NCBI GenBank assembly: GCA_043735865.1
Contig: JAYTDP010000197.1
Location: forward strand, 1 to 30,468
Length of the DNA stretch: 30,468 bases
Source of the DNA: Bdellovibrionales bacterium
GTDB taxonomy: Bacteria; Bdellovibrionota; Bdellovibrionia; Bdellovibrionales; UBA1609
Direction of reading: 5' to 3'
The notes under the pieces were generated by a model. The model did not search any database and was not told where the DNA came from. It saw only the letters and a program-made list of their open reading frames with translations. A program made the translations under genes and the position numbers. Shown here one piece after another: positions 21,304 through 22,107 of this stretch; position 1 is the stretch's first letter; each line of letters opens with the position of its first letter.

Positions 21304-22107
21304 TCAGAGCTCAATCATTTCTGGTTCGAGAGGGCCTTTAACTGAGATGATTTCATCGGGATAGATTCGTAAAAACACAAAGGATTCGATCTGCCCGCTA
21401 TCGCCAGGGCGAGCCATGAGTTCTATAACAGGAATTTCAATTTCGTAAATATACATTTTCACTTCAGGCATTCTAAGTGACTTAACAATTCCGCCAGCTA
21501 CCAGCTTAGCAATTTTCAAATTATAAGTTACGGACAATAAAGAGTCGATTGGGGGAAGTTCTGGAGAAGAGGCTACAATATCCTCGCTCCCATTTCGCCA
21601 TCGCTCTCTCATCATAGAGAAAATATTGTGTGCGTACGGATCCGCGGGAGATTTGCGAAGTTCGTGGCCCTCGTCACGTAGATAAGTAGCCAGTAAACCG
21701 CGTTTACTTACGGCCTGTGCCATTTCTGGCGTCAAAGCAAGCGCTCGGAAGACACGGGCCTTACCTAAATATTTACTATATGCTTCACGCGCTTCCCATG
21801 GATTCACGTACGCATGCTTTTTGGCGAATGCTACAAAATCATCAACCCTTAGGACCAAGCCGGGATCTGAAACGAGACTATCGAAATGGGGACCAAGCTC
21901 TTGGAGTAAAGATAATGCTTTTGCTCCAAAGACTTCTCCATAACGAAGTCTAGCTAACTTGTCTGTCGTGCCGGCGCGCCGAAGAGATCGCTTGAAAAAT
22001 AAAGTTCTCGATTCAGAGATATGAGGGGTTAAAAAGTCAGTACAATCTGCAGCATGTGCAACGTGTATGTAACAGAAAGAAAAGATGCAGAGCAAAAAAC
22101 GGTACAT
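21304..22107 (-). CDS. Secreted protein, putative R-S-E class ADP-ribosyltransferase
   Basis: Signal peptide ending AHA|AD. Ordered motifs VFRA, LLSVTYNLKIA, YIYEI and GQIESFVFLRIYPDEII. The ORF itself is well supported; the function is an inference. Confidence 0.6.
   Translation of the reverse strand: MYRFLLCIFSFCYIHVAHAADCTDFLTPHISESRTLFFKRSLRRAGTTDKLARLRYGEVFGAKALSLLQELGPHFDSLVSDPGLVLRVDDFVAFAKKHAYVNPWEAREAYSKYLGKARVFRALALTPEMAQAVSKRGLLATYLRDEGHELRKSPADPYAHNIFSMMRERWRNGSEDIVASSPELPPIDSLLSVTYNLKIAKLVAGGIVKSLRMPEVKMYIYEIEIPVIELMARPGDSGQIESFVFLRIYPDEIISVKGPLEPEMIEL

Follow-up and report, generated by a model that had tools for sequence, protein, structure and literature searches.

Toxins that act by ADP-ribosylation have a central place in bacterial pathogenesis and in warfare between bacteria. 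Scabin is secreted by means of a signal peptide and consists of a single enzymatic domain. Cholera toxin (CT), heat-labile enterotoxin (LT), pertussis toxin (PT) and the typhoid/Plt toxins are AB5 toxins, and the Tre toxins are C-terminal domains of Rhs proteins, which are delivered by the secretion system of type VI (T6SS) and have an adjacent immunity gene. The compact arginine–serine–glutamate (R-S-E) cores of the Tre type are used by bacteria against bacteria (PMC11606950, PMC9825190). Here we describe a gene found on a stretch of 30,468 nucleotides (hereafter the window; contig JAYTDP010000197.1 of assembly GCA_043735865.1), which comes from a bacterium of the Bdellovibrionota in a freshwater-sediment setting. 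Its product is predicted, with a probability that we put at about 80%, to be a Sec-exported enzyme with the R-S-E ADP-ribosyltransferase (ART) fold and an intact catalytic constellation. The features of the gene and its protein are as follows.

21304–22107, minus strand: complete coding sequence of 267 codons plus the TGA stop (21304–21306), with the ATG at 22107.
22051–22107, minus strand: residues 1–19, Sec-type signal peptide with R3 in the n-region, a hydrophobic core and A-H-A, probably cut before A20 (reading of the sequence).
22042–22044, minus strand: C22, the sole Cys of the mature protein, which begins a conserved C-x-x-[LF]-[FL] just past the signal (family alignment).
21766–22017, minus strand: residues 31–114, family-specific seven-helix N-terminal domain with RYG, DPG and PW..R..FS..LG (alignment and model).
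21307–21765, minus strand: residues 115–267, predicted ADP-ribosyltransferase core (model and structure searches).
21745–21747, minus strand: R121, the aromatic-Arg position on strand β1 (VFR; V-Y-R-[AG] in the family), in strand 116–125.
21526–21534, minus strand: S192-V193-T194, STS-type strand 190–194, followed by helix 197–211 (DSSP and alignment).
21445–21453, minus strand: Y219-I-Y221, aromatic strand after the STS helix, in strand 217–226 (alignment to the 'YIY' of the LT A subunit, LT-A).
21385–21393, minus strand: Q239-I240-E241, end of a loop and putative catalytic Glu just before strand 242–245 (alignments).

The AlphaFold2 model was built on an alignment of 64 sequences (A1), in which the query is 21–65% identical to the other 63. 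The mean pLDDT is 88.0 and the pTM 0.81; the core is mostly at 85–97. Three parts are distinguished in the model: an N-terminal signal helix, which is of low confidence, a helical domain (31–114) and a mixed core (115–267). The order of the elements in the modelled core is the canonical one for R-S-E ARTs, and the ART core with its split β-sheet, on which the initial annotation of this gene depended, is present in the predicted fold.

Concerning the structure searches, Foldseek against the PDB placed CT A1 first (E 6.6e-4), followed by EcPltA, pertussis S1, LT-IIb, TreX/TreTu, scabin, MTX and Tpt1. The VIA-align (VIA) search of 48,161 PDB representatives gave TreX (Z 8.0), KptA (7.3), EcPltA (7.2), scabin (7.1), PT (6.6), pierisin (6.4) and LT (6.0), and further down MTX (5.9), CARDS (5.7) and DarT (5.4), then PARPs and diphtheria toxin. 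When the Foldseek matches were re-aligned with VIA, 90 PDB chains had a Z of at least 5, and among the matches listed 50 of 50 belonged to the ART superfamily. The Swiss-Prot models matched were LT-IIa, Chelt, LT-IIb, PT and CT, and the matched clusters of the ESM Atlas carry Enterotoxin_a/Scabin-like, Pertussis_S1, PARP/DarT and DRAT. Thus, in four structure libraries, the matches listed are of the ART superfamily with few exceptions, with R-S-E toxins on top. Protein-language features agree weakly (DRAT, Scabin-like, Lart1, NarE, Mod).

Other members of the superfamily were considered and rejected. The structural matches to Tpt1/KptA (Z 7.2–7.6) span only 84–91 residues of the NAD+ lobe; the residues that the family keeps are R-S-E and not the R-H-R-R tetrad, and the N-terminal domain is all-helical where Tpt1/KptA have a winged-helix RNA lobe. 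PARP and DarT readings were set aside since the family keeps R-S-E and not H-Y-E/D.

Looking at the catalytic motifs, the strings RVFRAL (R121), KRGLLA, SLLSVTYNLKIAKLVA (S192-V-T194), YIYEI (219–223) and GQIESFVFLRIYPDEII (Q239-I-E241, carried by GQIESF) are all found, in the order given by the initial annotation, when the open reading frame is read directly. The C-terminus of the protein lies 26 residues past E241. In A1, G115 and R121 are invariant (R121 in 64/64) and an aromatic residue (Y or F) precedes R121 in 61/64. Of the 64 sequences, 63 keep S192, 62 have T or S at position 194 and 63 keep E241, so that the motifs exceed what chance would give; the aromatic strand after the STS helix is less uniform (Y219 in 50/64, F or Y at position 221 in 57/64). 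The positions conserved in at least 90% of the sequences are S192 (S-V-[T/S]), E241 (E-S-F), G137, P226, L78, P82, F94, L114 and I253.

The register with known toxins was obtained in two ways. First, the family profile was aligned with hhalign to a single sequence, LT-A (eltA of the annotated plasmid p666 of enterotoxigenic Escherichia coli H10407). VFR121AL falls on LYR(7)AD, G137-L on the G-L of GGLMPR, LS192VT on VS(61)TS (S192–T194 on S61–S63), MYIYEI on YYIYVI, and E241-S-F on the second Glu of the LT-A 'EQE' (E112); in global mode the alignment was meaningless. Second, offsets were derived from the two terminal residue pairs of each VIA alignment, on the assumption that the ends are ungapped. 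For CT A1 (model 115..265 to 1..136) R121 corresponds to residue 7 and E241 to 112, and for PT S1 (model 115..261 to 3..149) they correspond to 9 and 129; E241 corresponds to 165 in pierisin and to 197 in MTX. Residues 112 (CT/LT), 129 (PT), 165 (pierisin) and 197 (MTX) are what we take to be the catalytic Glu positions of those toxins. The two approaches agree for CT, LT and PT. It is thus strongly indicated, on the basis of the model, that R121, S192 and E241 lie on the strands that in LT, CT and PT bear the catalytic Arg, STS and Glu, which is where the initial annotation had placed the R-S-E motifs.

Several points weigh against the assignment to the ARTs. No ART model was matched when the protein, its relatives and the family profile were searched against Pfam, NCBIfam, PADLOC, PHROGs and PDB sequences. 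In Pfam the protein itself gave nothing at E≤10, and the 64 aligned members gave no informative domain and none at E≤0.01, the sole match being a sub-threshold Flp/Fap in one member. The hhalign alignment to LT-A is statistically weak (E 0.025–0.05, probability about 1–2%). The convergence of R121, S192 and E241 on one cleft is inferred, indirectly, from the alignments of the model to known ARTs. Across the family, the first [Q/E] of the canonical [QE]xE lacks conservation. An immunity gene, a B subunit or a delivery system linked to the ART gene was found at none of the loci examined, and a search of sequencing runs found the gene in none of the RNA runs. Finally, the structural Z values (up to 8.0) are 'middling' by the scale of the tool; since no single structural score is high, the case for an ART rests on the consistency of the match lists.

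The gene is a member of a sizeable unannotated family and not a singleton, as judged from sequence. A word-index protein search gave one relative only (P0002, 65% identity). An exhaustive HMMER scan over 1.84 billion cluster representatives gave 211 representatives at E≤1e-3, 59 at E≤1e-10 and 3 at E≤1e-30, so the description as an 'orphan' in the initial annotation does not hold. An identical protein is also found on a second contig, and near-identical DNA is present in sediment and freshwater-sediment metagenomes of two studies; these metagenomes and the 211 related cluster representatives together indicate that the gene is real. The members with a named source are 'hypothetical proteins' from metagenome-assembled genomes (MAGs) of Bdellovibrionales/Bdellovibrionota, in line with the predator lineage that had been proposed as the source, and one cluster comes from an Elusimicrobiota MAG.

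Based on profile searches, the family is found in 5 of the 109 genomes of the taxonomic family and in 27 of the 401 genomes of the phylum, scattered over many families. It is absent from a genome of the same genus, and a search of the genome contigs for related loci, with the single protein as query, found none. A stand-alone accessory gene of patchy distribution in Bdellovibrionota is strongly indicated. The fusion partners found by Pfam in longer members are only one esterase and one giant protein. The latter (P0086, 6658 amino acids, metagenome) matches residues 53–141 of the query, a stretch which covers the Arg strand and the greater part of the N-terminal domain, with its residues 1684–1783, and contains GNAT acetyltransferase and methyltransferase domains in its C-terminal region; judging from these domains, it may be a multi-effector protein.

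The Q-x-E motif was central to the initial annotation. Q239-I-E241 is indeed present in the protein, and the nearest relatives also have Q-x-E, but Q is not a feature of the family. Position 239, two residues before E241, is occupied by D (10), A (9), E (8), K (7), R (6), G (6), Q (5), N (4), S (3) and others; the canonical Q or E is found in 13 of the 63 members and Q alone in 5, in a loop where the alignment is perhaps imperfect. At the level of sequence, the Q of QxE is lineage-specific. With Q or E in only 13/63 members, QxE gives no indication of the target, and the argument for guanine or DNA as target, which had been drawn from it, is not supported.

An ART of the scabin/pierisin type, with guanine in DNA or nucleosides as acceptor, would agree with the Q-x-E of this protein and its nearest relatives and with the 'Pierisin-like domain' entries among the neighbours in the AlphaFold database (AFDB). 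In the whole-model VIA search the alignments of scabin, ScARP, pierisin and MTX also enter the N-terminal helices most consistently, reaching back to residue 31–34 (model 31/34..265), with up to 146–148 aligned residues (pierisin) compared with about 110–116 for core-only matches; some PARP rows also begin at 31–34 but align no more residues than the core-only matches. A scabin/pierisin-like N-terminal extension has mild support from these model alignments. However, there is no Scabin-like or pierisin Pfam match at E≤10, Q239 is found in few members, and the N-terminal domain alone matches nothing, scabin and pierisin included. The Z values of 6.4–7.2 tie with those of TreX, EcPltA, CT, PT and Tpt1 (6.6–8.0) or fall below those of the first four, so the affinity to scabin and pierisin proposed initially is seen only in alignments which extend somewhat into the N-terminal helices. 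We consider guanine modification improbable.

The N-terminal domain accompanies the ART core throughout the family and is its best-conserved part. When residues 31–116 (86 residues) were folded alone with a 54-sequence alignment, seven helices were obtained with a pLDDT of 95.2. No structural relatives of this domain alone were found (best E 7.3 for Foldseek against the PDB, best Z 4.0 for VIA). Four AFDB clusters with no or uninformative names match both domains (TM by query 0.56–0.63, E 2e-12 to 2e-9) and, from these model comparisons, probably belong to the same family.

Concerning export, the N-terminus comprises a single basic residue, a hydrophobic core of 13 residues and, ahead of a likely cleavage after residue 19, A-H-A. 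A hydrophobic, signal-like N-terminal segment is found in most relatives; some have lipoboxes and a few lack any signal. Sec export, as proposed in the initial annotation, is thus consistent with the Sec-type signal seen here and in most relatives. The relative P0005 (478 amino acids, metagenome; 45% identity over query residues 30–267) begins with a Flp/Tad-pilin-type leader, and its source gives it the name 'Flp pilus assembly pilin Flp'; the leader suggests an alternative export route in some family members. The column of C22 contains Cys in 41 of the 52 sequences which have a residue there. An unrelated secreted protein of 491 amino acids in another genome (G048, L004:412-1887, minus strand) has the same post-signal motif, H-A-x-D-C-x-D-x-L-[ST]-P-H (E 0.009); the resemblance may be due to chance, or the stretch around the conserved Cys may serve sorting or processing in both proteins.

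NAD+ is found within cells only, and it is lacking in the periplasm and in the medium. Because NAD+ is intracellular, an exported ART must act in another cell or on leaked NAD+. The function is most likely that of a mono-ART or NAD+ glycohydrolase (NADase) effector which is Sec-exported and active in another cell. In the mechanism that we propose, NAD+ would be held after export by R121 and S192, E241 would activate the bond between the ribose C1' and nicotinamide, and the ADP-ribose would be passed to an acceptor or to water. The enzyme would act in another cell, with prey or a competitor as the most plausible one, or on leaked NAD+; for a bacterium of the Bdellovibrionota, prey is the obvious candidate target. 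One fixed acceptor of the arginine type across the family is unlikely because the residue two before E241 is variable.

Q at the −2 position is also found in the transferases PT, C3 and scabin. For ExE toxins it is reported that transferase activity requires the first Glu, and that the second is required for NAD+ hydrolysis too (PMC11606950). Because the −2 residue varies while the first acidic residue of ExE is reported to be needed for transfer, an activity dominated by NADase, or a non-arginine acceptor, could be envisaged for the family. The former would make the protein mainly an NAD+ glycohydrolase, which depletes NAD+ in the target cell and modifies no macromolecule; a near-invariant E241 next to a −2 position which is free to vary would fit it. 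This is an inference only, however; the protein itself has Q at −2, and the strongly conserved extra N-terminal domain suggests recognition of a specific partner, and we consider a predominantly hydrolytic role unlikely.

The lack of a sequence match to any characterised ART family, and export in a protein with no recognisable delivery apparatus, would also agree with an ART-fold protein which has no enzymatic role (binding or structural) or with an enzyme acting on the envelope of the producer itself. The near-invariance of the three catalytic positions and the aromatic strand at 21–65% identity is hard to explain without catalysis, and a purely self-directed role outside the cytoplasm is unlikely where NAD+ is lacking; both possibilities are, in our view, very remote. 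An exported effector with ART or NADase activity in another cell is the reading that we retain.

A more specific proposal, which we offer as speculative, is that the members of the family form a separate branch of R-S-E ARTs in which the obligatory seven-helix N-terminal domain of novel structure, and not the Q/E of the ARTT loop, selects the acceptor, and that those secreted by predatory Bdellovibrionota kill or disable prey through an acceptor which is not arginine and perhaps not a protein at all (a nucleic acid or a small molecule), or through NAD+ depletion. If true, it would be the first ADP-ribosylating weapon described in bacterial predators; the literature searched contained no relevant paper on ADP-ribosyltransferases from Bdellovibrio-like organisms.

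The genomic context of the gene was compared with that of a genome of the same genus (G003, 99% complete), in which synteny is kept from the small subunit of ribonucleotide reductase (RNR) to beyond fur-uvrA. The ART gene is convergent with hemB, which is 87 bp away, and lies 204 bp downstream of a gene for a secreted protein of 361 amino acids. In G003, hemB and the HD-domain gene are 76 bp apart, which identifies the ART gene and the 361-amino-acid gene as an indel:

21217–23632, no strand: two-gene indel relative to the same-genus genome, comprising the ART gene and an unrelated orphan secreted-protein gene at 22317–23402, minus strand (synteny).

No flanking repeats or mobile-element marks were found around the two-gene indel, and its GC content is the same as that of the surroundings. 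No immunity gene is evident in the window or in the neighbourhoods of six relatives, and the 204-bp upstream gap contains no small open reading frames of note; the statement in the initial annotation that no immunity gene is evident is borne out. The neighbourhoods of the six relatives consist of unrelated housekeeping genes, with no T6SS/Rhs, B-subunit or immunity candidates and no conserved neighbour.

The 361-amino-acid protein (22317–23402, minus strand) has a signal peptide and no relatives in Pfam, the atlas or the word index. It was rejected as a partner, B subunit or immunity protein, since the one homologue that it has (37% identity) belongs to G016, a genome in which the ART family is missing, and since none of the other ART loci contains it. 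A protein of 280 amino acids (24510–25352, plus strand) contains a sub-threshold type IV pilin-like N-terminal methylation motif (20.2 bits vs a cut-off of 21.2). A tblastn search of the syntenic 16 kb of G003, in which ~70 bp separate the HD gene from uvrA, gave no counterpart of it; its gene is a second small indel adjoining the first.

Concerning the start of the ART gene, a TTG two codons upstream of the ATG is a possible alternative start codon. The last base of a perfect TATAAT hexamer (22115–22120, minus strand) is 7 nt ahead of the ATG; no Shine-Dalgarno sequence is present, and the scan gave no −35 partner. The hexamer may be a chance occurrence, or it may point to a transcript that is leaderless or has a short leader. 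The promoter/terminator scan gave no site upstream of or behind the gene, and an Rfam search gave no match around it.

What is now defined is a family, so far without annotation, of more than 200 sequence clusters, with a confident model, the catalytic candidates R121, S192 and E241, and an extra domain without a structural relative. It is a candidate, open to direct testing, for the means by which certain predators or their relatives attack other cells, and target discovery gains a new ART family; it is still a new branch of a very well-known enzyme superfamily.

In its mode of action the protein would resemble the group of CT, PT and scabin. Comparing the protein with known ART systems, the A subunits of CT, LT, PT, EcPltA and PltA (Enterotoxin_a, PF01375; Pertussis_S1, PF02917) are the top Foldseek matches and have VIA Z values of 6.0–7.3. 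As in CT, LT and PT, the Arg, the S-x-S/T, the aromatic strand and the Glu occur in the same order and register, and the local patterns are similar (Y-R-A, then G-[LMI], then E with I seven residues on); a Sec signal and the lack of an immunity gene are also shared with this group. Unlike CT, LT and PT, the protein has an 86-residue helical domain before the Arg strand (theirs lies within ten residues of the mature N-terminus), belongs to no Pfam family and comes from a family in which the −2 residue is variable. It also has no intramolecular disulfide, because the mature protein contains only one Cys. Unlike in the AB5 toxins, there is no A2 linker and no adjacent B-subunit gene. A PF01375 search of its own genome gave no match, and no control genome reached the cut-off either.

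With the Scabin-like group (PF22596: scabin, ScARP, pierisin-1 and MTX) the protein shares Q-x-E, and the VIA Z values are 7.1–7.2 for scabin, 6.4–6.9 for pierisin and 5.9–6.2 for MTX. Like scabin it bears a signal; unlike scabin and pierisin it has no sequence-family match, and the Q is not conserved in its family. DUF7587 (PF24494) is also among the AFDB neighbours: its AFDB entries match the core, and one family member has a sub-threshold match to it (E 0.044), whereas this protein has none. These model-based matches suggest that DUF7587 is itself an unrecognised ART-like family; no paper on it was found in the searched literature, and neither it nor the matched AFDB clusters have a described function.

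The best VIA matches are those of the TreX/TreTu/Tre1 group (TreX: Z 8.0, root-mean-square deviation 2.8–3.1 over 109–110 residues; TreTu: Z 7.8). In contrast to the Tre toxins, this protein has a Sec signal; Rhs, PAAR and VgrG are absent from its context, as is an immunity gene, and the strict ExE of TreX is replaced by a family that is variable at −2. With neither AB5 nor Rhs/T6SS architecture, and lying by sequence outside Enterotoxin_a, Pertussis_S1 and Scabin-like, this family is best filed as a new family-level branch of the R-S-E clade.

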